Shown here piece by piece: positions 12,807-29,777 of a stretch of DNA of 44,108 nucleotides (its first letter is position 1; each line of letters opens with the position of its first letter). Origin of the DNA: a virus. The stretch is taken from the UHGV virus genome UHGV-0106768. One strand, given 5' to 3'. The translations under genes and the position numbers were made by a program. A model generated the notes under the pieces. It saw nothing but the letters and a program-made list of their open reading frames with translations, made no database searches and had not been told where the DNA came from.

Positions 12807-12902
12807 CAATATACAGTCTGTATGATCCACCCCTTATTGACGACAGGAAGACGGCAAAGCGGCGACAATTCGGTTACGCCGCAAACCACGGAGGTGAAAA
12901 CT

Positions 12903-13388
12903 ATGGCTCGTAAGAACAAACGCCTAAAAACAGAATACCACAGAGGGCTCGGCTTTGATCCGAGAAAATATATTACGGCACCGGTGCAGCACCACACCAT
13001 CGCTCACAAGCCGCAGCGCGGTGACATCTGGTTTGCGGATCTTGGCTGTCATCCGGATTCCAGCGTGCAGAGCGGCATCCGTCCGGTTATCATTCTCTCG
13101 AATGATATGGGCAATGCACACGCCGACACGGTCAATATCATTCCCATGACGCGGCATCTGAAAAAGCCGGAGCTGCCGTGCCATACGCATCTGTTCCCCG
13201 ACAGTATTTCCGATCTTCATCAGCATCTATATCCGTCCATGATCCTGGCGGAGCAGCTCACGACTGTCAGCAAGCATGCGCTTCGCAGCTATGCCGGACA
13301 TATCTCGGACGCCGATGCGATGAACCGTATTGAAACCGCTGTCATTGCACAGCTTTTCATTGAAAGGAGACATTCCGAATGCCTGTAA
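12903..13388 (+). CDS. PemK/MazF-fold toxin-like protein
   Basis: GGAGGTG RBS. PQRGDIWFADLG...SGIRPVIILSNDMGN...VNIIPMT matches the PemK/MazF core. No antitoxin-like ORF is adjacent. Confidence 0.65.
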   Translation: MARKNKRLKTEYHRGLGFDPRKYITAPVQHHTIAHKPQRGDIWFADLGCHPDSSVQSGIRPVIILSNDMGNAHADTVNIIPMTRHLKKPELPCHTHLFPDSISDLHQHLYPSMILAEQLTTVSKHALRSYAGHISDADAMNRIETAVIAQLFIERRHSECL

Positions 13389-15808
13389 ATTTCGTAAATA
13401 TCCCGGACGCACTGAAGCAGTCGGCATCCTTCTGTGTCTGGAAGCTGGAAAAGAGATCCGGACGCCCCACAAAAGTGCCGTACAATCCGAGAACCGGCAA
13501 CATGGCAAAAACCAACGAGCCGGACACCTTCACCGACTTCAAGACCGCTATGAAAGCGTATGCGATTGGCGGCTGGAACGGCATCGGCTACAGAGTTTCC
13601 GAGGGAATCGGTGCAATCGACATCGACCACTGTATCCGGGAGGACGGCAGCCTGAATGATGTGGCAGCATCCATTCTCGGTATCTTCAGCACTGCCTACT
13701 TTGAACGCTCTCCATCCGGCACCGGACTGCGCGGCTTCTTCAAACTCAGCCCTGAGTTTGCCTACGATAAGACTGTGTACTACATCAACAACCGCAAACA
13801 CGGTCTGGAGGTCTATCTGCCCGGAACGACCAACCGCTTTGTAACTGTTACGGGAGATATGTTCCGTCCCGGTACCGTTGAGCGTGATGATGATGCACTC
13901 CGCAATCTGCTTGACACCTTCATGAAGCGCAGCACCCGTGTATCAAATAAGACGATCGAGCCTGCATCCTATCTTGATGACGAGGGTGTCATCGCACACG
14001 CATTCGCCTCTGCTTCTGGTGATAAATTCAAAGCACTCTACGAGGGACACTGGGAGGAAGGCTATGATTCGCAGTCTGATGCAGACATGGCGTTCGTGTC
14101 CATGCTGTGCTTCTGGTGCGGCAATGTGGAGGAGCAGATCGACCGTATCTTCCGAACTTCCGGTCTGATGCGTGATAAGTGGGATCGTATGACCGGTGAC
14201 AGGACCTACGGTCAGATCACGATCCGCAATGCCATCGCATCGACATCCGAGATCTATACACCTATTGCGGACTCCTCCGCAGAGGATGATTTTGAAGATA
14301 TTGAGGGCGAGACAGATACAGAGCAGCTGATGTTTGAGCCGGATTTCACCCACATCACCCTGACGCTGGAACAGATGCAGCCGCACACAAATCCTCGCTA
14401 TCAGCGTGACGAGATCGGTATTGGCTATGCATTTGCGGATTACTATAAGCCAATCGCTCATTTCGACCGTGAGCGCGGTATCTGGTATGTCTTTGACGGG
14501 AAGGTGTGGCAGCCGGACGAAAATGCTCTCGCTGTGGCGGAGATTGCAAAGCGTCTGGCAGACAGGCTGTATACCTTCGCCCTTCAGATCAAGGATGAGG
14601 ATACTCGAAACAGGTATATCAAGCGTGTACAGAAGCTCCAACTCCGCAAAAACCGCCGCACCATGATCGAAGATGCGAAATCCGTGTATCCAGTGCCGCA
14701 CGCTATCTTTGACCGCAATACCGATCTGTTCAACAGTCAGAACGGCACGCTGAACCTCACCACAGGTGAATTCCGTCCGCACGATCCGGCAGACTTTCTC
14801 ACCATGATGTCCGGTGTCACCTATGATCCGAATGCCACCTGTCCGAGATGGGAGCAGTTCATTTCCGAAGTTATGTGTAACGATGCTGACCTCGCATTAT
14901 ACTTGCAAAAAGCCCTCGGATATGCGCTTACCGGCGACACATCGCTCGAATGCCTGTTCATCCTCTACGGTGCGACCTCCCGAAACGGAAAAGGCACCAC
15001 AATGGAGACATTTCTGAAGATCATGGGTGATTACGGCAAAACCTCCAATCCGGAGATGCTGTCTACAAAATTCGGCAACACCAATGCGTCCGGACCGTCT
15101 GAGGAGATTGCTCGCCTTGCGGGTGTGCGTTTCGTTAATATCTCCGAGCCGGAGAAGAAGATCACCTTCAATGCAGCACTGGTAAAGCGTATGACGGGTA
15201 ACGATACACTGAATGCTCGTTTTCTGCATGAGAACAGCTTCGATTTCAAGCCGAATTTCAAGATCTTCATCAATACGAATTACAAACCGTCCGTTTCTGA
15301 TATGACACTGTTTTACTCCAACCGTCTGAAGCTCATTCCGTTCAAACGCCATTTTGAGGAGCATGAGCAGGACAAAGGTCTGAAAGCATTTTTCAGTACG
15401 GATGTCTGCCTCTCTGCCATCTTTAACTGGTGCTATGAAGGATATAAGCGGTTTCGTTCCGAAGGTCTGGAGGATCCGGCTGCTGTTTCTCAGGCAACCA
15501 AGGAGTATCAGGAGGAGTCTGACCGCATCGGTCAGTTTGTGGATGCATGGCTCGAAGAAGGCGAAGCATTTGAAGTTCGTACCTCTGCGGCATATAAGCT
15601 GTACGGTGAATGGTGCGATAAGTATGGCTACCGCAAGGAGAACAGCACCAACTTCAATAATGCGATTCAGCGTTTCTTCCCCATCGTGCGTAAGCGTCCG
15701 AACGATACAAAGGGTGCGCAGAAAACAACAATGCTTGTGGGGTGCCGTTTCCTGGATCATGAAAACGGCGAAGCTGACGAACCGGATGAGTTTGCTGCCT
15801 TGGAGTAA
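13379..15808 (+). CDS. Bifunctional primase-polymerase / D5-P4-type primase-helicase
   Basis: N-terminal prim-pol (GIGAIDIDHC), PriCT-like SDADMAFVSMLCFWCG, and Walker A ILYGATSRNGKGT of phage/plasmid P4-family primases. Confidence 0.85.
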   Translation: MPVNFVNIPDALKQSASFCVWKLEKRSGRPTKVPYNPRTGNMAKTNEPDTFTDFKTAMKAYAIGGWNGIGYRVSEGIGAIDIDHCIREDGSLNDVAASILGIFSTAYFERSPSGTGLRGFFKLSPEFAYDKTVYYINNRKHGLEVYLPGTTNRFVTVTGDMFRPGTVERDDDALRNLLDTFMKRSTRVSNKTIEPASYLDDEGVIAHAFASASGDKFKALYEGHWEEGYDSQSDADMAFVSMLCFWCGNVEEQIDRIFRTSGLMRDKWDRMTGDRTYGQITIRNAIASTSEIYTPIADSSAEDDFEDIEGETDTEQLMFEPDFTHITLTLEQMQPHTNPRYQRDEIGIGYAFADYYKPIAHFDRERGIWYVFDGKVWQPDENALAVAEIAKRLADRLYTFALQIKDEDTRNRYIKRVQKLQLRKNRRTMIEDAKSVYPVPHAIFDRNTDLFNSQNGTLNLTTGEFRPHDPADFLTMMSGVTYDPNATCPRWEQFISEVMCNDADLALYLQKALGYALTGDTSLECLFILYGATSRNGKGTTMETFLKIMGDYGKTSNPEMLSTKFGNTNASGPSEEIARLAGVRFVNISEPEKKITFNAALVKRMTGNDTLNARFLHENSFDFKPNFKIFINTNYKPSVSDMTLFYSNRLKLIPFKRHFEEHEQDKGLKAFFSTDVCLSAIFNWCYEGYKRFRSEGLEDPAAVSQATKEYQEESDRIGQFVDAWLEEGEAFEVRTSAAYKLYGEWCDKYGYRKENSTNFNNAIQRFFPIVRKRPNDTKGAQKTTMLVGCRFLDHENGEADEPDEFAALE

Positions 15809-15846
15809 AAGTAGACTTTTCTCCGTATTTGCGCTGTTTTCCGCAG

Positions 15847-15938
15847 TTGGGGCAACGTGGGGCAAGTTTTTTCGGTGGTTATTATTATTACTTCTCTTTA
15901 TATATATTACTATTTTTACTTGCCCCTACTTGCCCCAA
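15847..15938. repeat. 21-nt inverted repeat flanking a 50-nt AT-rich spacer; candidate origin core
   Basis: TTGGGGCAACGTGGGGCAAGT (15847-67) versus the reverse complement of ACTTGCCCCTACTTGCCCCAA (15918-38). The spacer is TTTTTCGGTGGTTATTATTATTACTTCTCTTTATATATATTACTATTTTT. Confidence 0.5.
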
Positions 15939-16114
15939 ATAAATAAAAACAATAGAAAAGATAAGAAGAATAGAGGATTTTCACTGATTTGAACCATTAC
16001 CCATTTTGCACTGTTTTGAACCTTGCCCGATGCTGTCACTGACAAAGAGTGTGTAAGCGACAAAGCGTGGCAAGGTCAAAATCCAACGATCAATCATGCA
16101 GGAGGAACAAGAAT

Positions 16115-17209
16115 ATGAGAATCATCACTTCAGAACAGGTATCCGCAGGACACCCCGACAAGATCTGTGACCAGATCGCAGATGCTATCGTGACCGACTG
16201 CCTGCAGCATGACCACAACAGCCGTGTCGCCATCGAGTGCCTTTTCAAGAACCGCTTCCTTGTGATCGCCGGTGAACTGACCAGCACCCATGAGCCCGAC
16301 TACAAGGCACTGGTGCAGAGCGTGTTTGACCGCATCAACAACGGCGGAGCAGAGAGTACCGATGCAGGTTTTGATTACAAGCTGGATTTCACAGCCGATG
16401 ATCTGGACATTGCGATTCTGGTCGATCACCAGAGTAGCGACATTGCCCTCGGTGTGAATACCGGCGGTGCAGGAGATCAGGGTATGATGTACGGCTATGC
16501 GACCAACGAAACGCCGGAGATGCTCCCGATCCCCTTCGTGCTGGCTACCAGATTTCTGGAACTGCTGAAAGCCTACCCCTGCCGTATGCTGAAAGCCGAC
16601 GCAAAGGCACAGGTCAGCTATGACTATGACAGCGGTCGCATTACCACCTTCCTCTGCTCGGTGCAGCATACACACGATGTGGATGTTGAGGACTTCAAGC
16701 CCATCATCGAAAAGCTGATGGTGAGAACGGCAACCGAATACGGGCTGAATACAGACTTTGCAAAGCTCGTCAACCCGACCGGCAGATTTGTCATAGGCAG
16801 TTCCTTTGCGGACTGCGGCGTTACCGGACGCAAGCTCGCCTGCGATACCTATGGCGGTATCGGGCATATCGGCGGCGGTGCAATGTCCGGCAAAGATCCG
16901 TCTAAGGTTGACCGCAGCGGCGCATATGCAGCAAGAAAAATCGCAAGGGATATCGTCAGTGCCGGATATGCGGATATGGCAGAGGTGCAGATCGCATATG
17001 CCATCGGCGTGGCAGAACCCGTATCCGTGTATGTGGAAACCTTCGGCACGGAGCATCAGGATACGGAGTTCATCAGCCAGTATGTCCGTGAGAACTACGA
17101 CCTGACACCGAGAGGTATCATTGAAGGACTGCATTTGCTGGATGTGGACTACAACGCTGTTTCCGCATACGGACACTTCGGAAAACAGAACCTTCCGTGG
17201 GAACTATAA
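16115..17209 (+). CDS. metK: S-adenosylmethionine synthetase
   Basis: GGAGGA RBS. SAGHPDKICDQIADAI, GAGDQGMMYGYA and GGGAMSGKDPSKVDRSGAY motifs. Confidence 0.9.
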   Translation: MRIITSEQVSAGHPDKICDQIADAIVTDCLQHDHNSRVAIECLFKNRFLVIAGELTSTHEPDYKALVQSVFDRINNGGAESTDAGFDYKLDFTADDLDIAILVDHQSSDIALGVNTGGAGDQGMMYGYATNETPEMLPIPFVLATRFLELLKAYPCRMLKADAKAQVSYDYDSGRITTFLCSVQHTHDVDVEDFKPIIEKLMVRTATEYGLNTDFAKLVNPTGRFVIGSSFADCGVTGRKLACDTYGGIGHIGGGAMSGKDPSKVDRSGAYAARKIARDIVSAGYADMAEVQIAYAIGVAEPVSVYVETFGTEHQDTEFISQYVRENYDLTPRGIIEGLHLLDVDYNAVSAYGHFGKQNLPWEL

Positions 17210-17236
17210 TAAATTTTTTGAAATTTTTTTTTGATT

Positions 17237-17279
17237 GGATACCCACAAAATGCCCTCTCCCACGACAGTATATGAGGGG
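17237..17279 (+). repeat. Copy 2 of the conserved 44-nt motif
   Basis: GGATACCCACAAAATGCCCTCTCCCACGACAGTATATGAGGGG. The stem is kept through an A-to-G change giving a G-U pair. Again follows a gene end and a T-run. Confidence 0.7.
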
Positions 17280-17360
17280 CGTTGCTCAGACCGAACAACA
17301 CATCATTTGCGGGGCTGACCGTCCCTCACCAAATATCAACACAGGAAGGAGGCAGAGACA

Positions 17361-17720
17361 ATGCCGAGCAGACCAAAGACACCATGCCGTCACCCCGGCT
17401 GTGCGGCGCTCGTACCCTACGGTGCGAAGTACTGCGGCAAGCACCGTTCTCTCCATCCGGAGGATACACGCTCCGCAGGCAGTCGAGGCTATGGCACCGC
17501 ATGGAACAAGGCCCGCAAGCGTTACCTTGAGACGCATCCGCTGTGTGTGGAGTGCATGAAGCAAGGACGCTACGTCAAGGCGACCGATGTGGATCACATC
17601 ATGCCGCACCGAGGAGACAATGTTCTCTTCTGGGATCAGAGCAACTGGCAGAGCCTCTGCCACCGACACCACAGCATCAAAACCAGAAACGAGGATCACA
17701 CCCCTGAGTACAAGTACTGA
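17361..17720 (+). CDS. HNH endonuclease (the type usually found next to phage terminase genes)
   Basis: GGAAGGAGG RBS. CVECMKQGRYVKATDVDHIMPHRGD...WQSLCHRHHSIKT. Confidence 0.8.
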   Translation: MPSRPKTPCRHPGCAALVPYGAKYCGKHRSLHPEDTRSAGSRGYGTAWNKARKRYLETHPLCVECMKQGRYVKATDVDHIMPHRGDNVLFWDQSNWQSLCHRHHSIKTRNEDHTPEYKY

Positions 17721-18915: not shown

Positions 18916-19397
18916 CGCTGACTGAGAACTTCATTCAGAATGCCATCCATCTCGATGCGGGTGCGGAGGTCATGTACGGCAGCGATCAGATGTACGACAC
19001 CTACCCTTGCCGTTTTCCGGCTGTGGAGTTTCAACTTATGGCAACGGATGCTCTTGTTGAGGTTGCAGACCGCATCCGCATGGAGAAGGGCTACCTTCCG
19101 ATGCATCCGAGAGACGGCAAGACAGACGATGTGGACTGCGATGGTTTCTATGATTTTTATGTCGGGATTTCAAAGCTCCCCGGCGACCATCAGCAGTGCC
19201 AGCTTGACAGCAGCATCAGCTTTATGGTTGTCAATTCGGATTCGGATGACAACGAGGATATGTACAATATCGACTTGACAGAAGCAGAACGGGAATATGT
19301 GTATGAGATACTGAACCGACAGTGCCGGAGGTATCACGGCAAGGACTGCGCCGAACTTCTGGCAGAGTCTGAAAAGGAGCTGATGGATACAGCATGA
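18912..19397 (+). CDS. Hypothetical protein
   Basis: ATGA-type overlaps with both neighbours. 161-aa ORF. Confidence 0.55.
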   Translation: MTLTENFIQNAIHLDAGAEVMYGSDQMYDTYPCRFPAVEFQLMATDALVEVADRIRMEKGYLPMHPRDGKTDDVDCDGFYDFYVGISKLPGDHQQCQLDSSISFMVVNSDSDDNEDMYNIDLTEAEREYVYEILNRQCRRYHGKDCAELLAESEKELMDTA

Positions 19398-21541
19398 GAA
19401 TTATCAAGCGAAACGGCGCAGAGGTGCCGTATGACTGTGAAAAGATCAGAGCCGCAATTACTGCGGCAAACGATGAGATGGATTCCGGCGACAGGATCAC
19501 AGATACAGTAATCGGCTTTATTGCTGGTAATGTAGAAAAGCGATGTGAGGCACTTGCAAGGCCTGTCCATGTCGAAGAAGTCCAGGACATGGTTCTTGAT
19601 GAACTGGACAGGGCCGAAGCGTACAAACTTGCACGGCACTACAGCGAGTACCGCCTGCGTCATGAACAGCAGCGCCGGATGAACACAACGGACGGCAAGA
19701 TTCTCAGTCTCCTTGAGAGGAACAACGAGGAGGCAAAACAGGAGAACGCCAACAAGAACCCGATCATCAACAGCACGCTCCGTGACTATATGGCGGGGGA
19801 GGTCAGCCGAGACATCTGCCGCCGATTCCTGTTTCCCGAAGATGTAATCGCTGCCCACGATGACGGCATCATTCATGTACACGATCTGGACTACATCGCA
19901 GAGCCGATGCATAACTGCTGTCTGGTGAATCTGGAGGATATGCTTCAGAACGGCACAGTGGTATCCGGTACTATAATTGAGAAGCCGCACAGCTTTTCGA
20001 CTGCCTGCAATATCGCAACGCAGATCATTGCACAGGTCGCCTCGAATCAGTACGGTGGACAGACCGTCAGCCTTGCACATCTTGCACCTTTCGTGGATGT
20101 GAGCAGAAAAAAGATCCGCACCGAGGTGTTCGAGGATGTGAACTGCGACTGCGGTGCAAAGCTGTCTGAAAAAGAACTGGACTACATCGTAGAAAAGCGT
20201 GTGCGACGGGAGGTCAAGCGTGGCGTGCAGACGATACAGTATCAGATCAACACGCTGCTCACTACCAACGGACAGACGCCGTTCGTCACAGTGTTTATGT
20301 ATCTTGATGAAGTGCCGGAGGGACAGACCCGTGATGACCTTGCGCTCATCATCGAGGAAACACTGCTTCAGCGTATCGAGGGTGTGAAAAACGAAAAGGG
20401 CATCTGGATCACACCGGCATTTCCGAAGCTGATCTATGTTCTTGATGAGGATAACATTCAGCCCGGTTCCAAGTATTACTATCTCACCGAGCTTGCCGCC
20501 AAGTGTACTGCAAAGCGCATGGTTCCCGACTATATTTCCGCAAAGGTGATGAAACGTCTGAAGGGTGATGTGTATGCCTGCATGGGCTGCCGATCTTTCC
20601 TGACACCTTCGGATGACCACAAATACTACGGGCGATTCAATCAGGGAGTCATCACGATCAACCTTGTGGATGTTGCGTGTAGCGCAGGCGGAGACGAAGA
20701 TAAATGCTGGCAGCTTCTTGATGAACGCTGCGAACTGTGCCGCAAAGCGCTTGTGTGTCGGCATGACCGCCTGAAAGGGACACCGTCCGATGTTGCACCA
20801 ATCCTCTGGCAGTATGGCGCACTTGCGAGACTGAAGAACGGCGAGGTCATTGACGATCTGCTGTATAACAACTACAGCACGATCTCGCTCGGCTATGCCG
20901 GCATCGCGGAAATGACCTATCACATGACAGGCCGTTCGCATACAGAGCCAGAAGGAAAAGCGTTTGCACTGAAGGTCATGCGATTCCTGAACGATAAGTG
21001 CAGCAAATGGAGAGCTGAAAGCAATATCTCGTTCTCGCTGTACGGCACGCCGATGGAGAGCGTCACCTACAAATTTGCACAATGTTTGCAGCGCAGACAC
21101 GGCATCATTCCTCATGTGACCGACAAGAGCTATATCACCAACAGCTATCATGTCCATGTGACTGAGCCGATCGATGCCTTCAGCAAGCTAATTTTTGAGG
21201 CAGAGTTTCAGGAGCTTTCTCCGGGCGGTGCGATCAGTTATGTGGAAGTACCGAATCTGCAAAACAATATCCCTGCAGTGCTGGTGCTCATGAGACACAT
21301 CTACGAAACGATTCTGTACGCCGAACTGAATACCAAGTCCGATTACTGTCAGGCTTGCGGCTATGACGGCGAGATCGGGATCGTGGAAGAAGACGGCAAG
21401 CTGATCTGGGAATGTCCGAACTGCGGCAACCGCGATCAGCGAACACTGAATGTCTGCCGCCGCACCTGCGGTTACCTCGGAACGCAGTTCTGGAATCAGG
21501 GACGCACTGCTGAGATCAAGGATCGGGTGATGCACCTGTGA
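19394..21541 (+). CDS. nrdD: Anaerobic ribonucleoside-triphosphate reductase
   Basis: N-terminal ATP-cone (MRIIKRNGAEVPYDCEKI), C-terminal CxxC...CPNCG zinc site, and glycyl-radical motif RRTCGYLG. Confidence 0.92.
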   Translation: MRIIKRNGAEVPYDCEKIRAAITAANDEMDSGDRITDTVIGFIAGNVEKRCEALARPVHVEEVQDMVLDELDRAEAYKLARHYSEYRLRHEQQRRMNTTDGKILSLLERNNEEAKQENANKNPIINSTLRDYMAGEVSRDICRRFLFPEDVIAAHDDGIIHVHDLDYIAEPMHNCCLVNLEDMLQNGTVVSGTIIEKPHSFSTACNIATQIIAQVASNQYGGQTVSLAHLAPFVDVSRKKIRTEVFEDVNCDCGAKLSEKELDYIVEKRVRREVKRGVQTIQYQINTLLTTNGQTPFVTVFMYLDEVPEGQTRDDLALIIEETLLQRIEGVKNEKGIWITPAFPKLIYVLDEDNIQPGSKYYYLTELAAKCTAKRMVPDYISAKVMKRLKGDVYACMGCRSFLTPSDDHKYYGRFNQGVITINLVDVACSAGGDEDKCWQLLDERCELCRKALVCRHDRLKGTPSDVAPILWQYGALARLKNGEVIDDLLYNNYSTISLGYAGIAEMTYHMTGRSHTEPEGKAFALKVMRFLNDKCSKWRAESNISFSLYGTPMESVTYKFAQCLQRRHGIIPHVTDKSYITNSYHVHVTEPIDAFSKLIFEAEFQELSPGGAISYVEVPNLQNNIPAVLVLMRHIYETILYAELNTKSDYCQACGYDGEIGIVEEDGKLIWECPNCGNRDQRTLNVCRRTCGYLGTQFWNQGRTAEIKDRVMHL

Positions 21542-22005
21542 ATTACTGCGGACTGAATAAAAACGATATCGCCAACGGCGAAGGTGTCCGTGTATCGCTG
21601 TTTGTATCCGGATGCCGGAATCAATGCAAGGGCTGTCACAACCCAGAGGCATGGGATTTCAGCTATGGACAGCCCTTCACAAAAGAAACTGAAGATGAGA
21701 TCATCGAAGCCCTGCGTCCTTCTTGGATACAGGGCATTTCCATACTCGGTGGTGAACCCTGTGAGCCGGAAAATGAAAAAACACTCCTGCCTCTGCTGAA
21801 AAAGATCTGGTGGGAGATGCCAGAAAAAGATATCTGGCTGTACAGCGGATACACTTACGAGCAGTTGCAAGGCAGAGCCATACTTCGGTATGTGGATGTT
21901 CTGGTTGACGGGCCGTTCCTAATCGACCAGAAGGATATCTCCCTTGCATTTCGAGGCAGTCGGAATCAACGGATCCTCCGATTAAGAAATGGGGTGCGGG
22001 TATGA
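21538..22005 (+). CDS. nrdG: Anaerobic RNR activating protein (radical SAM)
   Basis: GEGVRVSLFVSGCRNQCKGCHN cluster. Start overlaps the nrdD stop (GTGA). Confidence 0.88.
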   Translation: MNYCGLNKNDIANGEGVRVSLFVSGCRNQCKGCHNPEAWDFSYGQPFTKETEDEIIEALRPSWIQGISILGGEPCEPENEKTLLPLLKKIWWEMPEKDIWLYSGYTYEQLQGRAILRYVDVLVDGPFLIDQKDISLAFRGSRNQRILRLRNGVRV

Positions 22006-22319
22006 GAGCCAGACTGAAACCGCCGGGAGATGCCGTTCGCTGCGATGCCTGCGGATGTGCCTTTGTGCCGGAGCCGAAAATGCAGCGTGAGGGCGAGATC
22101 GAATACAGCTTCTTCAACTGTGATTACTGTGGCAAAGCGTATATCGTGTCTGTGACCGATGCCGCACTCCGCCGGAGCATCCGCAAGTACCGGACGCTTG
22201 CCGAAAAGCTGAAGGACAAGCCGCTGAGTGAAGAAACGCTCCGTGAAGTCACGGCGCTGAAGGATGCGAACACAAAAAGAGCCGCAGAGCTGCGGCAGAT
22301 GTATATACGGGAGGGATGA
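22002..22319 (+). CDS. Hypothetical zinc-ribbon protein
   Basis: CDACGCAF...CDYCGKAY pairs. ATGA overlap with nrdG. Confidence 0.55.
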   Translation: MRARLKPPGDAVRCDACGCAFVPEPKMQREGEIEYSFFNCDYCGKAYIVSVTDAALRRSIRKYRTLAEKLKDKPLSEETLREVTALKDANTKRAAELRQMYIREG

Positions 22320-22320
22320 G

Positions 22321-23592
22321 ATGAAAACAGCAGAACTTCGCATGATCCCTGTCTCGGAACTGAAGCCTGCGGAATACAACCCGCGTAAAAAGCTGAAGCC
22401 CGGCGACAAGGAATACGAGAAGATCAAAAACAGCATCGAGGAATTCGGTTTTGCCGACCCTTTGGTAGTCAACGCCGATATGACCATCATCGGCGGACAT
22501 CAGAGACTGACCGTAGCGATGGCGCTCGGCTACACGGAAGTTCCGTGTGCGGTGGTAGACATCGACAAGGTTCGTGAGAAGGCACTGAACATCGCACTGA
22601 ACAAGATCACGGGTGCGTGGGACGAGAACCTTCTTGCTGAACTTCTGGAGGATATTCAGAACAGTGATTTCGATCTTGGCAAGACCGGCTTTGACCCGCC
22701 GGAGATCGAGCAGCTTTTCAATCAGGTACACGATAAGCAGGTCAAAGAGGACAGCTTCGATGTGGAGGAGGAGCTTCAGAAACCGACCTTCTCTCAGCCG
22801 GGAGATACCTGGATCCTCGGCAGGCACAGAGTCATCTGCGGCGACAGCACAGTTGCGGAGACATACACAAAGCTGATGGACGGACAGAAAGCAAATCTCG
22901 TCCTGACGGACCCGCCTTACAATGTGGATGTTGAGGAGACCGCCGGCAAGATCATGAACGATAACATGAGCGACAGCGATTTCTACAACTTCCTGCTTGC
23001 CGCCTATAAGTGTATGTATGACAGTCTTGCCGATGACGGCAGCATCTATGTATGGCACGCCGACACCGAGGGGCTGAATTTCAGAAAGGCATTCAAGGAC
23101 GCAGGATTCCAGCTTTCCGGCTGCTGTATCTGGAAGAAGAATTCGCTGGTGCTCGGGCGCAGTCCTTACCAGTGGATCCATGAACCGTGCCTGTTCGGCT
23201 GGAAGCAGAAGGGCAAGCATCAGTGGTACGCCGACCGCAAGCAGACGACCGTCTGGGAATACGACAAGCCGAAAAGCAGTCCCGATCATCCGACCACAAA
23301 GCCCATCCCGCTGATGGCGTACCCGATCAAGAACAGCACCATGACAAACGGCATCGTCCTCGATCCATTTCTCGGCTCTGGCTCTACGCTGATCGCCTGC
23401 TGTGAGACAGACCGTGTCTGCCGGGGCATCGAGCTTGACCCGAAGTTCGTGGATGTCATCGTGAAACGTTACCTCGCATGGTGTCAGGAGAAGCAGACCG
23501 CAGAGGTCGCATATGTTCTCCGTGACGGCCAGAAGCTGTCATACGAGGAAGCGATTGCAGTAATGCCGCAGGACGGTGATGCTGTTGAGTGA
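22321..23592 (+). CDS. ParB-like nuclease domain fused to an N6/N4 DNA methyltransferase
   Basis: N-terminal ParB/Srx pattern (IPVSELKPAEYNPRK...IIGGHQRL). LVLTDPPYNVD motif IV. C-terminal DPFLGSGST motif I. Confidence 0.88.
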   Translation: MKTAELRMIPVSELKPAEYNPRKKLKPGDKEYEKIKNSIEEFGFADPLVVNADMTIIGGHQRLTVAMALGYTEVPCAVVDIDKVREKALNIALNKITGAWDENLLAELLEDIQNSDFDLGKTGFDPPEIEQLFNQVHDKQVKEDSFDVEEELQKPTFSQPGDTWILGRHRVICGDSTVAETYTKLMDGQKANLVLTDPPYNVDVEETAGKIMNDNMSDSDFYNFLLAAYKCMYDSLADDGSIYVWHADTEGLNFRKAFKDAGFQLSGCCIWKKNSLVLGRSPYQWIHEPCLFGWKQKGKHQWYADRKQTTVWEYDKPKSSPDHPTTKPIPLMAYPIKNSTMTNGIVLDPFLGSGSTLIACCETDRVCRGIELDPKFVDVIVKRYLAWCQEKQTAEVAYVLRDGQKLSYEEAIAVMPQDGDAVE

Positions 23593-23935
23593 AGTAAAAT
23601 GCGTTCTCATACACGACAATTTCCAGAATTACAAGGGCTACAGCATTCCGAGGGCACAGCTCGTCATTGCGGATATCCCGTATAACATTGGCGGAGATTT
23701 TTACGCAAGTCGCCCGGACTGGTATGTGAATGGCGACAATCAGAACGGCGAAAGCAGCAAAGCGCACAAGGCGGCATTCCACACGGACTACTCTTTCAAC
23801 ATCGCTGAGTATTTCGCATTCTGCAACCGACTGCTCAAAAAGGAACCGTCCAAAGGTGAAAAGGATGCTCCCTGCATGATCATGTTCTGCGCCTTCCAGC
23901 AGATCCCGGAGGTCATCCGGCAGGCGGAGAAATAA
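23579..23935 (+). CDS. N6/N4 DNA methyltransferase, upstream part (motif IV), ends at an in-frame TAA
   Basis: LVIADIPYNIG is a DPPY-type motif. The frame continues open past TAA 23933-23935. Confidence 0.65.
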   Translation: MLLSEVKCVLIHDNFQNYKGYSIPRAQLVIADIPYNIGGDFYASRPDWYVNGDNQNGESSKAHKAAFHTDYSFNIAEYFAFCNRLLKKEPSKGEKDAPCMIMFCAFQQIPEVIRQAEK

Positions 23936-23965
23936 GGCTTCAAGCACTACCAGTTTTTATGCTTT

Positions 23966-24352
23966 ATGAAGAACTACAGTCCGCAGGTGCTGAAAGCAAA
24001 CATGAGGATCGTTGGTGCTACCGAATATGCGCTGGTGCTGTATCGGGGCAAGCTGCCGAAGTTCCGCAATACCGATGCGGACGGCAAGCGGCACATGATC
24101 TTCGACCATTTCGACTGGGTGCGGGACGGCAAAGATATCCCGAAGATACATCCAAGCCAGAAGCCGGTGAATCTGCTGAAGCGCCTGATTGGGATATTTA
24201 CCGATGAGGGCGATGTGGTCATCGACCCCTGTGCGGGTTCAGGAAGTACACTGAGAGCCGCAAGAGAAATGGGACGCAACAGCTACGGCTTTGAGGTCAG
24301 CAGGGATTTCTATACCAAAGCCCGTGAGCAGATGCTCGGAGGTGCGGAATGA
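23966..24352 (+). CDS. N6/N4 DNA methyltransferase, downstream part (motif I)
   Basis: HPSQKPVNLLKRLIGIFTDEGDVVIDPCAGSGSTLRAA. Same frame as 23579..23935 and open from 23936 (GFKHYQFLCFMKNY...). Confidence 0.65.
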   Translation: MKNYSPQVLKANMRIVGATEYALVLYRGKLPKFRNTDADGKRHMIFDHFDWVRDGKDIPKIHPSQKPVNLLKRLIGIFTDEGDVVIDPCAGSGSTLRAAREMGRNSYGFEVSRDFYTKAREQMLGGAE

Positions 24353-24594
24353 CGAAACAGGAATGTGCCATCGTGACAGCGTACACAGGGTTCGCTATGC
24401 TGAAGGGCAGCGACCTGAAATATCTGTACAATTATCTCTCCGGTCTCATCGGCAGGCCGGTGTATTCACACGAGATCCCTGCGGTCGCAGAAGCCTGCAA
24501 GGAACAAATACGAGAAGATTTCCTTGCCCTGTGCAGGAACGCAAAGGAGGCGGATGATGGATCATACAACAATGACGCTCGGCAGTCTGTTTGA
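24349..24594 (+). CDS. Hypothetical protein
   Basis: ATGA overlap with the upstream gene. 81-aa ORF. Confidence 0.5.
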   Translation: MTKQECAIVTAYTGFAMLKGSDLKYLYNYLSGLIGRPVYSHEIPAVAEACKEQIREDFLALCRNAKEADDGSYNNDARQSV

Positions 24595-26848
24595 CGGCTC
24601 CGGGGGCTTTCCGCTTGGTGGCATCCTCGCAGGGATCGAGCCAAGGTGGAGCAGCGAAATTGAACCTTTTCCGGTGCTTGTCACGCACAAGCGGCTGCCG
24701 CAGGTGCAGCACTACGGTGATGTATCTACGCTGAACGGCGCAGAGCTTCCGCCGGTGGATATCATCACCTTAGGCAGTCCTTGTCAGGACCTGTCTATTG
24801 CGGGCAAGCGTGCCGGAATCCATGACGGTGATCGGTCGAACCTGTTCTTTCAGGCGATCCGCATCATCAAAGAAATGAGGGATGCAACAAATGGACGATA
24901 TCCGCGATACTGCGTCTGGGAAAATGTCCCCGGCGCTTTCTCATCCAACGGAGGAAACGACTTCAAGGCTGTCCTCGAAGCAGTTATCGGAGTTAAAGAA
25001 AAAGGGATCGAGGTGCCTGCGCCTGAAAATCACAGATGGGCAAAATCAGACGTATATCTGGGAGACGGATGGAGCGTGGCTTACCGAGTTTTCGATGCTC
25101 AATACTGGGGTGTCCCCCAACGCAGAGCAAGAATCTACCTTGTCGCAGATTTTGCTGGCGAAAGTGCCGGAGAAATACTATTTAAGTCCGAAGGCGTGTC
25201 TTGGTATACTCCGCAGGGCTTCCGTGCGTGGCAAGGAGCTGCCGGAGGTGCTGAAGAAGGCACTGGAGAAACAGGCGGGCGGTCTGACGCTGGAGGTGGA
25301 ACCCTCTGCCTGAATACACAGGGCAACAGCGGCGTCGGCATCACCGAGGACAAGGCTCTCGCACTGGTCGCACAGGATCACGGGAATCATCCTGCCGTTC
25401 TTGCCGCAGGTTTTTCCACAGAGCATAGTGCAAAAGCACGCAGCATCGGATACGAGGAGGAAGTCTCCCCGACACTGAGAGCAGGTGTTGTTCCTGCGGC
25501 ACTCTCGGTCGAAAACCATCCGACAGACGGTCGTGTGAAGATCCGTGAGGACGACACCTGCCAGACACTTTGCAGCAGAGCCGGGACGGGCGGCAACAAT
25601 GTACCGCTTGTCGCTGAACCGATCACGCTGAAAATCAGGTCAGGCTGCGAAGGCGGCGGCAAGGGCGCTCTCTGGCAAACTGATAAATCTGCTACGCTTG
25701 CTACCAACAACAACCAGACACTCTTTCAGCCAGAGATCAAAGCCTTCGGTGTATGTAGCAAGCATTCCAATGCGATGATGTCAGACAATCCGCACAGTGG
25801 CTTTTACGAAGCGACCACGAGCAGAACGCTTGACCAGAGCGGTGGAAACTCCGTAACATCGAATCAGGGCGGCATCTGCGTGGTAGCACCTGCGCCGGAG
25901 ACATTCGATGTGCGTTTCACATCGGACGGCACGAAAAATGCTCGTGGGCATTGTTACCCGACAGACATTTCCCGATGCCTTGATACGAGCGAGGGATCGC
26001 CAGACTCGAATCACGGCGGTGTCGCTGTGGTGGCTCTTGAACCGGGGGCTGCATCACGTGTCGGCGGTCATGTGTACAGTGACGGCAAAAGCGGTACGCT
26101 TCGAGCCAATGCCGGCGATAATCAGCAGGCTGTTGTGGTCGCCGAGCCGGAGACCTATGCTCTGCAAGGCTCGATGATCGGTCGTGCCGACAAGAACGGT
26201 CCGCAGGGTGACGGCATCAATGAGGATGTGTGCTTTACGCTCAATACTTCAGACAGGCACGCTATTGCCGCACCCGATCCGTCTTTCACGATTTCCCGTG
26301 ACAATCACTTCGCCGTTTCGGAAGATATATCTGTTACGGCAGTTGCGAGAGGTCCTGCAACGGTCGCAGCCCCGGCAGATCACTACTGCACAAGCAAGAA
26401 TTCACACCACACGGTCGCTGTGCATGAGCAGGCAAACACGCTGGTCGCATCCGACTGGAAGGATCCGCCGCTTGTGAACGACCTTCCGAATGACGAGCCG
26501 GTATATATCGTAAGAAGGCTGACTCCGGTGGAGTGCGCCAGATTGCAGGGATTCCCGGACTGGTGGTGTGCCGACCTTGCGATTCCTGATCCTTCTGACG
26601 AGGAGATCGCCTTCTGGATGGAAGTATGGGAAACTTGGAGACAGATCACAAATCCCAAGGGCAAACCGAAAACGGAAAAGCAGATCCGCAAATGGCTGGC
26701 TAATCCGTACACGGACAGTGCCGAGTACAAGTTATGGGGCAACGGTGTCTCAGAGCCCGTTGTGTTCTTCGTGCTATCCGGCATTGCCTGGGCGGCACAG
26801 AATTCTGAAACTAATGCAGCAAATTGTGAACATTCTGATACTATGTAA
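24554..26848 (+). CDS. dcm: DNA (cytosine-5) methyltransferase with a variable region of about 450 aa made of tandem TRD-like repeats (probably multispecific)
   Basis: Motif I LFDGSGG, IV GSPCQDLS, VI WENVPG, VIII QRRARIYLVADF, IX RRLTPVECARLQGFP, X GNGVSEPV. AAGGAGG RBS before ATG 24554. Confidence 0.9.
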   Translation: MMDHTTMTLGSLFDGSGGFPLGGILAGIEPRWSSEIEPFPVLVTHKRLPQVQHYGDVSTLNGAELPPVDIITLGSPCQDLSIAGKRAGIHDGDRSNLFFQAIRIIKEMRDATNGRYPRYCVWENVPGAFSSNGGNDFKAVLEAVIGVKEKGIEVPAPENHRWAKSDVYLGDGWSVAYRVFDAQYWGVPQRRARIYLVADFAGESAGEILFKSEGVSWYTPQGFRAWQGAAGGAEEGTGETGGRSDAGGGTLCLNTQGNSGVGITEDKALALVAQDHGNHPAVLAAGFSTEHSAKARSIGYEEEVSPTLRAGVVPAALSVENHPTDGRVKIREDDTCQTLCSRAGTGGNNVPLVAEPITLKIRSGCEGGGKGALWQTDKSATLATNNNQTLFQPEIKAFGVCSKHSNAMMSDNPHSGFYEATTSRTLDQSGGNSVTSNQGGICVVAPAPETFDVRFTSDGTKNARGHCYPTDISRCLDTSEGSPDSNHGGVAVVALEPGAASRVGGHVYSDGKSGTLRANAGDNQQAVVVAEPETYALQGSMIGRADKNGPQGDGINEDVCFTLNTSDRHAIAAPDPSFTISRDNHFAVSEDISVTAVARGPATVAAPADHYCTSKNSHHTVAVHEQANTLVASDWKDPPLVNDLPNDEPVYIVRRLTPVECARLQGFPDWWCADLAIPDPSDEEIAFWMEVWETWRQITNPKGKPKTEKQIRKWLANPYTDSAEYKLWGNGVSEPVVFFVLSGIAWAAQNSETNAANCEHSDTM

Positions 26849-26925
26849 GCTGTTCTGTATGGGCTTTCCGTGATATGCACAATCTCAGGGGCGTAAAAGC
26901 CCCGTACACTCTACGATTTACAGTC

Positions 26926-26954
26926 TTGATATATCCGCCGTAATGGCGTAATAT
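26926..26954 (+). promoter_or_regulatory. Cassette promoter 1: TTGATA-17-TAATAT
   Basis: Exact 17-nt spacer. Conserved leader and GGAGG RBS follow, then ATG 27011. Confidence 0.7.
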
Positions 26955-27010
26955 GTGACTACCGCAAGGGAAAACCGAGCGGAATCAAAAACGAAACGGA
27001 GGATTCACAT

Positions 27011-28132
27011 ATGAAAACTTATGCAATGATCATTGGAAACCGCAAGGAACTCACAAAGAGAATCGAGGCACTCACCGGAGAGCGCAGCGTATACACCTTC
27101 ATGCCGAGATGCGCCTATGAGATCGGGGCATTCGCAGTCGAGAAGGACGGCACACTTACGGCACAGGACGATGCCGACCAGAGCGTGATCGACACCCTGA
27201 GAGCCGAGGGTATGATCGGTGGTGAGATCATCGCAGAGAGCATCAAGGCAGTCGAGCCGGAGCAGACCGATGAGACCGCAGAGCCGGAACAGCCTGCACC
27301 GCCCGTAAGCACCGATGAATGGGACGATGATGAGGATGACGACGATGAGAACAGCGTCGAGGGCGAGAATGCGGAAGCGGAAGAGCCGGAGGAGTCCGAA
27401 GAAAATGCCGATAAGTCGGAGCCTTCCGCAGAGCCAGAAGCCGCACCTCCTGCGACCGAGGATGCCTGGGATGATGAACCGGAGGATGAACCCGGCGACG
27501 AGCCGGAAGAAACCACCGAGCTTCCTGAACCGCTGACCGCAGAGATCAGCTTCCCGCTGAGCCATCACACGGTGCAGAGCCTTACAAACCTCATCTGCAT
27601 GATCCACTCCCGCGGCGCACTTCTCAGCAAGGCAACCGGCGGACAGTTTTACGCTGACAAGAGCCTCGCCGATGCGATCCTCGATGACAAGACCTTCCGC
27701 AGCATTCACGAGCTGATCGCCTACATCAGAGAATGGGAGGAGACGAATCCTGAACTGAAGGGCATCCGCTTCGCCGATGACAAGCTAATCTTTGACGGCT
27801 TCGGTGCAGCGCAGGATGCCGAAACGGTGCAGACCTTCACCAAGCTCGCCACAGCCATGAACAGGATGGCGATCACGCAGAAACGTGTGCAGGCAAAGGA
27901 TGTCGATGACAGCAACGAAAAGTACGCACTCCGCATCTGGCTGATCCGCCTTGGGCTGAACGGCGCAGACTGCAAGGTTGACCGCAAGCGCCTCATGGCT
28001 CCGCTTTCCGGACACACCGCATTCCGCAACGATGCGGAGCGTGTGCGCTGGGAGGCAAAGCAAAAGGCAAAGCGTGATGCTGCCAGAACCGAACTGACCG
28101 AGGAGGATGAAAACGATGCAGTTTCCGAATGA
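27011..28132 (+). CDS. Hypothetical protein with an acidic low-complexity region of about 90 aa and an amidoligase-like C-terminal tail
   Basis: 373-aa ORF. Acidic tract EPEQTDETAEPEQ...DDDEDDDDENSVEGENAEAEEPEESEE. The C-terminus EKYALRIWLIRLGLNG...LSGHTAFR parallels KKFAMRTWLMRMGFIG...LTGDNSFR of the neighbouring amidoligase. Confidence 0.6.
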   Translation: MKTYAMIIGNRKELTKRIEALTGERSVYTFMPRCAYEIGAFAVEKDGTLTAQDDADQSVIDTLRAEGMIGGEIIAESIKAVEPEQTDETAEPEQPAPPVSTDEWDDDEDDDDENSVEGENAEAEEPEESEENADKSEPSAEPEAAPPATEDAWDDEPEDEPGDEPEETTELPEPLTAEISFPLSHHTVQSLTNLICMIHSRGALLSKATGGQFYADKSLADAILDDKTFRSIHELIAYIREWEETNPELKGIRFADDKLIFDGFGAAQDAETVQTFTKLATAMNRMAITQKRVQAKDVDDSNEKYALRIWLIRLGLNGADCKVDRKRLMAPLSGHTAFRNDAERVRWEAKQKAKRDAARTELTEEDENDAVSE

Positions 28133-28364
28133 AAGACAGCTCAGAGCCTTGCGGGAGCGTTATCCCGCAGGAACCCGCATCCGACTGAAGCATATGGATG
28201 ACCCTTATGCACCCGTACCGCCCGGCACGGTCGGAGAGGTTCAGATGGTCGATGACGGCGGCAACATACACATGGTCTGGGAGAATGGCAGAACGCTCTC
28301 CCTTATAGACGGTGTCGATGATTTCCAAGTCATTTCTGACCGCAATGGGGGCTCCGGAAAATAA
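28116..28364 (+). CDS. DUF4314 domain protein
   Basis: GAGGAGGA RBS. RYPAGTRIRLKHMDDPYAPVPPGTVGEVQMVDDGGNIHMVWENGRTLSL is the DUF4314 pattern. Confidence 0.7.
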   Translation: MQFPNERQLRALRERYPAGTRIRLKHMDDPYAPVPPGTVGEVQMVDDGGNIHMVWENGRTLSLIDGVDDFQVISDRNGGSGK

Positions 28365-28477
28365 GAGATCCTATTCCATTGTATCCGAGTATACCATAGA
28401 ATTTCAAGTATATCAAGTGTACACATACACCAGATATGAGCAATGTATTTTCCTCGATATTCTGTGGTTTTAGCGGC

Positions 28478-28506
28478 TTGCTATATCCTCCGAAAGACGG
28501 TAACAT
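28478..28506 (+). promoter_or_regulatory. Cassette promoter 2: TTGCTA-17-TAACAT
   Basis: Exact 17-nt spacer. Leader hairpin GGGC-AAAC-GCCC at 28521-28532. GGAGG RBS. Confidence 0.7.
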
Positions 28507-28561
28507 GTGACACAACGGAAGGGCAAACGCCCACCGAAAAACCGAATCGGAGGATACCAAA

Positions 28562-29506: not shown

Positions 29507-29542
29507 AGCCTGCCCTGCGGGGCGGAAGAACAAGCGGAACGT

Positions 29543-29670
29543 CACGGCGGCGCACACAGCACCCTCATCGCCACGTGTGGGGCGGAAGGGTATCCTCCGA
29601 ACACATACCCAACTCAGTCAACCGAGCCACACAGCGCAAATGTAGGCAAGGCATAAAATGCACAACATAC
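29543..29670. repeat. GC-rich intergenic S-module, copy 1 (divergent, hairpin arms apparently in inverted order)
   Basis: CACGGCGGCGCACAC...CCACGTGTGGGGCGG...GGCAAGGCATAAAATGCACAACA shares blocks with the copies at 32.2, 33.1 and 34.4 kb. Confidence 0.5.
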
Positions 29671-29709
29671 GGCACAGAATCGCCCTCGATGATCTGTTCA
29701 TTTACTCGC

Positions 29710-29738: not shown

Positions 29739-29777
29739 GGCACTACCGCAAGGAAAAAACGCAAAGGAGAACATAGC

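Follow-up and report, generated by a model that had tools for sequence, protein, structure and literature searches.

A short-form metK gene, without a SAM-I riboswitch, upstream of DNA methylase genes in virus genome UHGV-0106768

Introduction

Why should a phage carry an S-adenosylmethionine (SAM) synthetase gene of its own? The question is raised by a metK gene in virus genome UHGV-0106768, the analyzed stretch of which (44,108 nt) is referred to below as the window. The initial annotation, made from the sequence alone, suggested that the phage supplies its own SAM for methylation of its own DNA. Neither the gene nor the idea is new: both a phage metK and its reading as methyl supply have already been reported, the latter in 2014 (PMC4260502), and phage copies of metK are common, those of the related phages of the gut and of streptococci being known already. 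The window adds one more member from a distinct phage lineage, the absence of a riboswitch, the optional character of the cargo slot, and methylase modules that lack metK.

Identity and conservation of the metK gene

The gene and its ribosome-binding site are as follows.

16100..16106, plus strand: Shine-Dalgarno sequence AGGAGGA, 8 nt upstream of the metK ATG, read from the sequence
16115..17209, plus strand: metK, S-adenosylmethionine synthetase (methionine adenosyltransferase), 364 aa, short phage-associated lineage, PHROG 1569

The window gene is a bona fide metK. The reading frame, from the ATG at 16115 to the end of the stop codon at 17209, is complete, as had been noted, and the Shine-Dalgarno sequence and all three motifs quoted for it are present. 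Three Pfam domains, each above its gathering score, together span the whole protein: PF00438 (S-AdoMet_synt_N, aa 3-89, E 2e-24), PF02772 (S-AdoMet_synt_M, aa 118-225, E 7e-25) and PF02773 (S-AdoMet_synt_C, aa 227-363, E 5e-55). The NCBIfam equivalog model TIGR01034 (metK) gives a score of 387.6 bits, above its cut-off of 309.4, covering profile positions 2-365 of 377, while the phrog_1569 profile aligns aa 3-363 with its positions 2-345 of 346 (E 2e-130). The top PDB match is MetK from E. coli (1e-90).

All sixteen checked residues are conserved (H14, D16, K17, E42, E55, Q98, D118, D163, K165, F230, D238, R244, K245, K265, K269 and D271 in the E. coli numbering), and they are identical in 11 out of 11 short-type relatives as well. 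Among them, H14, D16, E42, D118, K165, D238, R244, K245, K265, K269 and D271 are those that we take to be catalytic or ligand-binding from the mutagenesis and structures of Markham and Takusagawa. The GHPDK and GAGDQG motifs are exact, GGGAFSGKD is changed to GGGAMSGKD (Phe to Met; Leu in L001 and L005), and the MetK subclade of the window has Ile in place of E. coli H257 (His being kept in 70 of 71 cellular MetKs) and a private insertion NNGGAESTDAGFDYKLDFTADDLD. The gene is under purifying selection, with pairwise dN/dS of 0.05-0.18 (median 0.10, 44 comparisons), and its reading frame is full-length in 75 relatives. The enzyme is very probably active.

A separate lineage of short MetKs

As the initial annotation had supposed, the window MetK is shorter than the bacterial enzymes: most of the 71 cellular MetKs have 378-412 aa, and its relatives have 345-364 aa. 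Only three cellular enzymes fall below 378 aa, among them two from Mycoplasma (362 and 366 aa). In the alignment, the short type lacks the C-terminal tail (E. coli 371-384) and has further deletions of 4, 3 and 1 residues; an insertion of about 16 aa preceding GAGDQG in the aligned Bacillus and Lachnospiraceae MetKs is absent from it too. These deletions, together with the differences at and around GGGAFSGKD, would perhaps alter product inhibition of the short enzymes.

The short-type MetKs form a monophyletic clade in the neighbor-joining tree of 84 sequences (bootstrap 100%). Their sister group is the Mycoplasma MetKs (92%), but this grouping is not relied on, since both are long branches. 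The mean identity of the window MetK to cellular MetKs is 46%, compared with 66% for cellular MetKs among themselves. The genome scan showed a clear gap, with nine loci 53-75% identical to the window MetK and all others 42-47%, and a search of the representative library for MetK added nothing beyond this gap. The cellular enzymes of Firmicutes (Ruminococcus, Faecalibacterium, Bacillus) belong to the same three-domain fold family and have the catalytic residues in common, but they are 42-47% identical to the window MetK, 378-405 aa long, and retain the C-terminal tail.

The initial annotation had expected phylogeny against host metK to date the acquisition; the phage gene is not a recent host copy. 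In Ruminococcus flavefaciens, a prophage MetK (contig assigned by NCBI) is 86% identical to the window enzyme, and the cellular one is 44% identical. We rejected a recent capture from the host, given the identity of 42-47% to cellular MetKs, that of R. flavefaciens included, and the separate, well-supported clade. An exclusively viral clade was rejected as well, because two members are cellular: in Oribacterium parvum (L009) the short-type metK is chromosomal, lies beside trkH/trkA, tpi and pgk, and has a SAM-I riboswitch, and in L011 it is chromosomal too, inside a glycosyltransferase cluster. As far as sequence comparison goes, the lineage is found chiefly in temperate Firmicutes siphoviruses, namely gut phages similar to Ca. 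Heliusvirales and Streptococcus prophages of the Javan/Φ1207.3 type.

Several MetK matches were set aside. An apparent intein-containing homologue (P0001, 599 aa) was rejected in favor of a partial tandem duplication or an assembly chimera, and Helicobacter "phage" matches were rejected as host metK flanking the prophage insertion site (PMC5311958). Matches of about 40-43% identity in phage records of Staphylococcus, Listeria, Acinetobacter and Salmonella are of the cellular type and may be host DNA.

Downstream genes and the cargo slot

Downstream of metK, and on the same strand, the window encodes the following proteins.

17361..17720, plus strand: HNH endonuclease (Pfam HNH; PHROG 144, 4e-36)
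19394..21541, plus strand: NrdD, anaerobic ribonucleotide reductase (Pfam NRDD 1e-189, ATP-cone, Gly_radical)
21538..22005, plus strand: NrdG, SAM-consuming radical-SAM activase of NrdD (Pfam Fer4_12 1e-49, Radical_SAM)
22264..23592, plus strand: ParB N-terminal domain fused to an N6/N4 DNA methyltransferase, intact (Pfam ParB_N and N6_N4_Mtase)
23576..24352, plus strand: second N6/N4 DNA methyltransferase, interrupted (DIPY motif, then VIDPCAGSGST; in-frame TAA at 23933-23935)
24524..26848, plus strand: C5 cytosine DNA methyltransferase, 774 aa (Pfam DNA_methylase)

The radical-SAM activase reported downstream of metK is borne out by both Pfam matches. The block of three methyltransferases holds for the ParB-fused N6/N4 enzyme and the enlarged C5 enzyme, both intact, but not for the second N6/N4 gene: its TAA codon corresponds to Tyr in 29 of 29 relatives, none of which has a stop. 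This methylase is probably inactive in the window genome, or else the codon is a sequencing error; as the sequence stands, the window has two intact methylases and a broken one. Between its motifs VIII and IX the C5 methylase has a variable region enlarged to about 440 aa, where pairwise comparison gives about 185 aa for a homologue of 422 aa, which suggests a multispecific enzyme.

The same arrangement recurs in related loci. The most constant downstream neighbor is HNH, found within 1.5 kb 3' of metK in 79 of 82 loci, with a gap of at most 0.3 kb in 66 of them. Among the 49 loci with enough flanking sequence, a ParB-N6/N4 methylase lies at most 10 kb downstream of metK in 45 and a C5 methylase downstream in 35. 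The pairing of metK with the ParB methylase spans phages of gut Clostridia and the Streptococcus prophage Φ1207.3. Methylases are missing within 10 kb in four of the 49 loci: L133 and L134, in phage contexts, and the chromosomal L009 and L011. In the R. flavefaciens prophage with the 86%-identical MetK, the 10 kb examined downstream of metK contain one methylase only. NrdD is confined to the subclade with MetK at least 72% identical to that of the window (29/29 loci vs 1/29 elsewhere).

The heliusviruses NatCom_13861 and NatCom_40364 lack metK, and an unrelated 464-aa ORF takes its slot, while HNH, the ParB methylase, the C5 methylase, amidoligase and terS follow in the same order. Judging from gene order, the slot that metK occupies holds variable cargo, with the replication module on one side and, on the other, a conserved late module (HNH, ParB methylase, C5 methylase, terS, terL). 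Since the methylase module is complete in these sibling phages, methylation needs no metK, and the gene is an optional booster rather than something that the methylation module requires.

Relation to known phages

The closest described counterpart is Orf29 (S-adenosylmethionine synthetase) of the Streptococcus pyogenes prophage Φ1207.3, 57% identical over its full length and of the same short form (345 aa). Φ1207.3 shares the order metK, HNH, small ORF, ParB-N6/N4 methylase, C5 methylase, terS, terL, but it lacks the NrdD/NrdG insertion, its 1-nt gap between metK and HNH holds no 48-nt motif (see below), and its single C5 methylase is of monospecific size, unlike the 774-aa enzyme of the window. 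Hosts of the Φ1207.3 group are Bacilli, while those on the side of the window are Clostridia. Homologues of Orf29 occur in about 90 Javan-type Streptococcus prophages. Iannelli et al. (2014) read the Φ1207.3 metK as a supply of methyl donor for the C5 methylase (PMC4260502).

On the heliusvirus side, a survey of 1032 Ca. Heliusvirales genomes reports S-adenosylmethionine synthetase (K00789) from 58.9% of them and K00558 from 67% (PMC11283538). The MetK of one heliusvirus, Evtepia phage NatCom_42594, is 62% identical to that of the window, with the same slot and gene order. The heliusvirus marker set found in the window comprises DUF2800/PD-(D/E)XK, Enc34 SSB, PolA, SNF2 helicase, TerL, portal, ClpP and HK97-type capsid proteins; for the endonuclease marker there are only a weak VRR-NUC match and an HNH_3 gene. 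The authors of the group define its TerL clade by an HMM bit-score above 700 (PMC11283538); by tblastn the window TerL is 73% identical to that of NatCom_42594.

Spacers and repeats around metK

The following elements flank the gene.

15845..16069, no strand: repeat-rich, AT-rich part of the spacer between the primase-helicase gene and metK (repeat search; candidate origin)
17237..17284, plus strand: copy 2 of a 48-nt repeat in the interval between metK and HNH (family D14, 88% identical to copy 1)

The initial annotation had metK standing alone, which agrees with a 306-nt spacer upstream (15809-16114) and a 151-nt spacer with repeat copy 2 downstream. The upstream spacer is repeat-rich and AT-rich: TGGGGCAA and TACTTGCCCC, each present twice, bracket an AT-rich core of 50 nt in inverted orientation, and tandem 27-mers and 18-mers come next. 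The initial annotation took this spacer for a candidate origin. A simple scan around metK found no sigma-70-like promoter, and two terminator-like sites on the minus strand are at chance level.

Copy 1 of the 48-nt repeat (3398-3445) is directly 3' of a sigma-70 region-4 gene. In eight relatives the motif lies about 30 nt past the metK stop, and in two, one of which has both, it is found about 120-130 nt past it. The next transcription unit may start at this repeat.

Absence of a SAM riboswitch

SAM-I riboswitches turn genes off at high SAM. In six of seven cellular metK loci compared, of the Oscillospirales type and standing for likely host groups, a SAM-I riboswitch (RF00162) is located directly 5' of the gene, all six being from Ruminococcus, Faecalibacterium, Ruminococcaceae or Acutalibacteraceae genomes, while the seventh (a Lachnospiraceae genome) has no riboswitch upstream. 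Riboswitch control is the general rule for metK (PMC2864571). None of the phage copies follows it (0/7 in all): the Rfam scan of the whole window at the gathering threshold gave no match, a scan of 15600-17500 at E<=5 gave none beyond a chance miRNA match, and six further phage or prophage metK loci had no match in the Rfam scan. A hidden SAM riboswitch, or another known RNA, upstream of the phage metK was rejected on the basis of these scans. The phage gene thus has a plain ribosome-binding site and nothing more, and its expression should escape SAM feedback. To judge from the sequence, the gene fits the role of an unregulated additional source of SAM.

Proposed role: SAM supply for self-methylation

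We propose that the phage metK is a catalytically competent, feedback-blind source of SAM, used mainly for self-methylation by the phage methylases; we estimate the probability of this reading at roughly one half. The window MetK would convert ATP and methionine to SAM, and its expression would add SAM-making capacity blind to SAM feedback, presumably raising the SAM pool, with a timing that is likewise presumed. The extra SAM would most likely go to the methylases of the phage, which would modify its replicated DNA ahead of packaging, with a presumed benefit to the phage; activation of NrdG would be a minor second use. The self-supply originally proposed for this locus is favored by the bona fide metK, its conserved arrangement upstream of methylases and the lack of a riboswitch; what weakens it is that the methylase block is independent of metK, that one methylase is broken, that the R. 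flavefaciens prophage has a single methylase in the stretch examined, that four of the 49 loci have none nearby, and that the genetic data on a prophage MetK of this lineage (see below) concern the lysogen.

More tentatively, and with more doubt than belief, the short lineage as a whole could be a phage-adapted, feedback-blind SAM source that raises SAM above the host set-point, so that multispecific methylases complete the modification of all genomes of a burst before packaging. The lineage would then perhaps have been passed back to bacteria, as in Oribacterium with its apparently riboswitch-controlled housekeeping metK.

If self-methylation is indeed the role, the gene would be a metabolic counterpart to the well-studied SAM-destroying strategy of phage T3, the phage lifting the methyl-donor supply to shield its own DNA, and this would account for the place of metK among the commonest "auxiliary metabolic genes" of viromes from gut, rumen and digesters. 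The T3-type SAMase (a SAM lyase) and the window metK are both phage genes directed at the host SAM pool, in a setting of DNA methylation and restriction. They act in opposite directions, since SAMase destroys SAM, inhibits MetK and disarms SAM-dependent host defence (bioRxiv 10.1101/2023.02.27.530186), while the window gene makes SAM; SAMase is of a different protein family, with no sequence relationship to the window MetK. It evades Type I R-M and BREX (bioRxiv 10.1101/2023.02.27.530186). Against self-supply, established knowledge and the same source indicate that raised SAM could also favor host restriction systems that depend on SAM (Type I, Type III, BREX).

Alternative roles

Another role, which we consider unlikely, is that of a lysogenic-conversion gene (moron): the prophage metK would alter host physiology (SAM-dependent pathways, AI-2 or polyamine metabolism, surface or biofilm properties) to the benefit of the host-prophage pair. 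The sole group member with genetic data is the Streptococcus agalactiae prophage 12/111phiA, which has metK with an adjoining endonuclease gene (PMC8223999). The phenotypes reported for its metK are aggregation, glycocalyx, biofilm and chain length, all of them traits of the lysogen rather than of methylation or restriction (PMC8223999). Deletion of relB-metK or metK abolished flocculation, long chains and part of the biofilm, and plasmid-borne metK partly restored aggregation; still, several complemented mutants kept the defect, and secondary mutations were found (PMC8223999). The genomic context gives arguments on both sides. The slot is variable cargo, occupied by an unrelated ORF in sibling phages, metK has its own Shine-Dalgarno sequence and spacers on both sides, the element appears temperate, its left end carrying an HTH gene and an ImmA/IrrE-like gene, and short-type MetKs also exist in purely cellular contexts (L009, L011). 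On the other hand, metK abuts HNH in most relatives (<=0.3 kb in 66/82) and points the same way as the lytic genes, suggesting that they are transcribed together, and the simple scan found no sigma-70-like promoter around it in the window.

It is quite improbable that the extra SAM serves mainly nucleotide metabolism, as the co-substrate with which NrdG switches on the phage NrdD. Class III ribonucleotide reductases require little of it, NrdG spending one SAM per glycyl-radical activation, and this demand is tiny next to that of DNA methylation. NrdD and NrdG do lie 2.2-4.8 kb downstream of metK and are present in every locus of the window's subclade with enough flank (29/29), and L134 has NrdD after metK-HNH while no methylase is detectable there. 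MetK is, however, equally conserved in clades without NrdD/NrdG (1/29), Φ1207.3 and NatCom_42594 among them.

We give very little credence to a role in defence or competition through the SAM level, be it by driving host modification enzymes to methylate the DNA of incoming or progeny phages, by buffering against SAM-degrading competitors, or by a SAM-derived signal. Phages are known to act on the SAM level in conflict with their hosts, as T3 SAMase demonstrates (bioRxiv 10.1101/2023.02.27.530186), but the presumed hosts have no known SAM-dependent system, no anti-defence partner gene was seen beside metK, and extra SAM would activate SAM-dependent restriction too.

Finally, it is extremely improbable that metK is a passenger, inactive or in decay and without a present function: although the Phe-to-Met change in GGGAFSGKD, the H257-to-Ile change of the subclade and the nonsense codon in the nearby methylase gene, a sign that decay does occur in the window genome, could be read that way, dN/dS is about 0.1 over the 44 comparisons, every catalytic residue is retained, the ORF is full-length in 75 relatives and the TIGR01034 score exceeds the trusted cut-off.

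As for the databases, PHROG 1569 is labelled "unknown function" and metK of NatCom_42594 is a "peptidase" in GenBank, so that annotation pipelines under-report phage metK.

Organization of the window

The window is a heliusvirus-like temperate siphovirus, in which metK lies at the boundary of two modules.

Gene order of the window
Left end: ImmA/IrrE-like gene, HTH gene, sigma-70 region-4 protein
Replication module: DUF2800 nuclease, Enc34-type SSB, PolA, SNF2 helicase, MazF-like gene, D5-type primase-helicase
metK (16115-17209, plus strand): SAM synthetase, between the replication module and HNH
Downstream of metK: HNH, DUF3310, NrdD, NrdG
Methylases: ParB-N6/N4 methylase, second N6/N4 methylase, 774-aa C5 methylase
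After the methylases: amidoligases, GGCT
Packaging and head: terS, terL, portal, ClpP, HK97-type capsid

The MetK protein

The complete metK reported in the initial annotation is present exactly at 16115-17209: its ORF opens with the ATG at 16115, closes with a stop codon whose last base is 17209, and encodes 364 aa. The sequence AGGAGGA stands eight bases before the ATG. The protein contains all three MetK Pfam domains, scores 387.6 bits with the curated NCBIfam metK equivalog (cut-off 309.4), and has E. coli MetK as its top solved-structure match (1e-90). In an alignment that also includes E. coli MetK and 82 further sequences, 16 residues, which we take from the mutagenesis and structural literature to be catalytic or ligand-binding, are all unchanged (H14, D16, K17, E42, E55, Q98, D118, D163, K165, F230, D238, R244, K245, K265, K269, D271; E. 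coli numbering). Two departures occur: the motif GGGAFSGKD is GGGAMSGKD in the window protein, and the window's subclade has Ile at a position where 70 of the 71 cellular MetKs have His. Pairwise dN/dS against 44 relatives is 0.05-0.18 (median 0.10); strong purifying selection thus acts on metK, which is no decaying passenger.

Short phage MetKs have their own PHROGs family, phrog_1569 (E 2e-130 with the window protein), labelled there 'unknown function'; the GenBank records of NatCom heliusviruses PV036427/428/430/444/445/448 name the orthologue 'peptidase'.

Lineage and origin of the short MetK

A scan of bacteria, with one genome per species, yielded nine loci at 53-75% identity to the window MetK (345-357 aa); after a sharp identity gap, all remaining MetKs are at 42-47% and mostly have 378-412 aa, so that the initial impression of a shorter enzyme holds. 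In the alignment, short MetKs lack the C-terminal tail (E. coli 371-384) and the insertion of about 16 aa before GAGDQG found in Bacillus and Lachnospiraceae sequences, and share deletions of 4, 3 and 1 residues. Mean identity of the window MetK to cellular MetKs is 46%, compared with 66% among the latter.

The initial annotation had proposed dating the acquisition by a phylogeny against host metK. A neighbour-joining tree built on 374 columns with 200 bootstraps recovers the short type as a single clade (100% support), separate from cellular enzymes. A prophage on a contig assigned by NCBI to Ruminococcus flavefaciens encodes a MetK with 86% identity to that of the window, and the order of its genes is the same; the cellular MetK of R. 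flavefaciens is 44% identical. The window metK thus belongs to an old lineage carried by phages and was not recently captured from a host.

The clade also has non-viral members. Oribacterium parvum ACB1 (L009 9787-11056, NZ_KE148312.1) has a chromosomal short-type metK, whose 352-aa product shares 59% identity with the window protein. A SAM-I riboswitch precedes the gene, and its neighbours are trkH/trkA, tpi and pgk; either a phage gene replaced the housekeeping gene of the host, or the lineage is cellular and served as the source. In an uncultured Clostridia MAG (L011 9995-11065, CAKPEI010000001.1) the gene lies inside a glycosyltransferase, O-antigen-ligase and epimerase cluster, with neither a riboswitch nor phage genes in the vicinity.

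Association with methylases

The comparison covered 91 related loci, of which 80 are IMG/VR contigs, 9 come from genomes and 2 are GenBank phages; the denominators below are loci with enough flank downstream of metK.

Genes downstream of metK in related loci
HNH within 1.5 kb: 79/82
HNH within 0.3 kb: 66/82
ParB-N6/N4 methylase within 10 kb: 45/49
C5 methylase within 10 kb: 35/49
NrdD, subclade with MetK at least 72% identical: 29/29
NrdD, all other loci: 1/29

The order metK, HNH, ParB methylase, C5 methylase, terS, terL is common to the Streptococcus pyogenes prophage Φ1207.3 and Evtepia phage NatCom_42594. However, NatCom_13861 (Agathobacter phage) and NatCom_40364 (Lachnospiraceae phage) keep the module of HNH, ParB methylase, C5 methylase, amidoligase and terS with an unrelated 464-aa ORF in the metK slot. 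Since the module persists there, metK is optional cargo at the module boundary, and the methylation module is associated with it, not dependent on it. In one IMG/VR contig (L134 11357-16300, IMGVR_UViG_3300018430_001101) the gene after metK-HNH encodes an NrdD of 1647 aa that contains an intein splicing domain as well as a C-terminal glutaredoxin, and no methylase homologue lies within 10 kb.

The three methylases and nrdG, ascribed to the neighbourhood of metK, are confirmed as neighbours, but the second N6/N4 methylase (23576-24352) is broken by a single in-frame TAA at 23933-23935. This codon is Tyr (TAY), and the ORF uninterrupted, in 29/29 relatives examined; the TAA reflects a nonsense mutation or an error in sequencing. 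Between motifs VIII and IX of the C5 methylase lie about 440 aa, where a homologue of 422 aa has about 185; this size would be compatible with several target-recognition domains without proving them.

Feedback control and proposed SAM supply

The SAM-I riboswitch (RF00162, 70-84 bits) lies directly 5' of cellular metK in six of seven genomes (Ruminococcus, Faecalibacterium, Ruminococcaceae, Acutalibacteraceae), and none was found upstream of that gene in the seventh, a Lachnospiraceae genome. Searches with Rfam families gave zero matches across the window and in six phage or prophage loci with short metK. As SAM riboswitch control of metK is common and established (PMC2864571), the phage copy should be free of this feedback; we did not find such escape stated in the literature searched.

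The phage gene and the methyl-donor idea are both already known. Orf29 of Φ1207.3 was annotated as SAM synthetase, and Iannelli et al. (PMC4260502) proposed for it a methyl-donor role serving the C5 methylase; De Jonge et al. (2024, PMC11283538) report, for 1032 Ca. Heliusvirales genomes, K00789 in 58.9% of them and K00558 in 67%; and metK ranks with the commonest auxiliary metabolic genes of pig-gut prophages (PMC12454387) and anaerobic-digester phages (PMC13644194). We found a homologue in 137 phage-database records, 90 of them Streptococcus prophages. The sole genetics on a prophage metK concerns S. agalactiae 12/111phiA, where lysogen aggregation and biofilm were affected (PMC8223999). The contrast drawn initially with the T3 SAMase, as the opposite strategy, is apt (bioRxiv 10.1101/2023.02.27.530186).

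The proposal that the phage supplies its own SAM for self-methylation is plausible and partly supported: synteny and the absence of a riboswitch agree with it, while the metK-less siblings and the broken methylase weaken it. Tentatively (probability about 0.3), the short MetK lineage may be a SAM source that is blind to feedback and adapted to self-methylation on the scale of a burst, and it may have been handed back to some bacteria.

Flanks of metK and other features

The spacer 5' of metK has 306 nt, with inverted doubled 8-10-mers flanking an AT-rich core. Right after the primase-helicase gene, at 15845-16069, TGGGGCAA and TACTTGCCCC, each doubled, stand as an inverted pair on either side of the 50-nt AT-rich core, next to which are tandem 27-mers and 18-mers; this region looks like a candidate replication origin. 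A simple promoter scan found no promoter near metK.

A 48-nt repeat occurs in two copies (88% identical), one directly 3' of the sigma-70 region-4 gene (2648-3397) at 3398-3445, the other between metK and HNH at 17237-17284. Both contain a short stem (CCTCTC/GAGAGG and CCCTC/GAGGG, respectively). In eight relatives the repeat lies about 30 nt past the metK stop and in two about 120-130 nt past it, one relative having both. Transcription units may begin at this repeat, in which case the window metK would end the replication unit; in most relatives metK abuts HNH.

PolA (6328-9213) has 961 aa, compared with 652 aa in an 82%-identical orthologue, with an insertion of about 309 aa bounded by intein-like junctions (RTQRW/CLTG ... 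VWVTGN/SGRG). TerL (35466-38132, 888 aa) has a LAGLIDADG_3 domain (aa 303-370) preceding the ATPase match, probably a second intein or a homing-endonuclease insertion. A MazF/PemK-like toxin-domain gene (12822-13388), for which no antitoxin partner was identified, lies between the SNF2 helicase and primase genes, and is also found in a related locus (L165) and NatCom phages. Two amidoligase-like genes and a gamma-glutamyl cyclotransferase gene form a module (27011-28132, 28562-29506, 29778-30239) that many relatives, metK-less ones included, also have between their methylases and terS. Finally, an intergenic element of 60-90 nt occurs at least eight times in 26916-34574; each copy is followed by a small ORF and combines a promoter-like part (TTGATA..TAATAT) with a conserved leader (ACAACGGAAGGGCAAACGCCC...GGAGGA). 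This region, which separates the methylases from terS, resembles a series of small genes that each have their own promoter.
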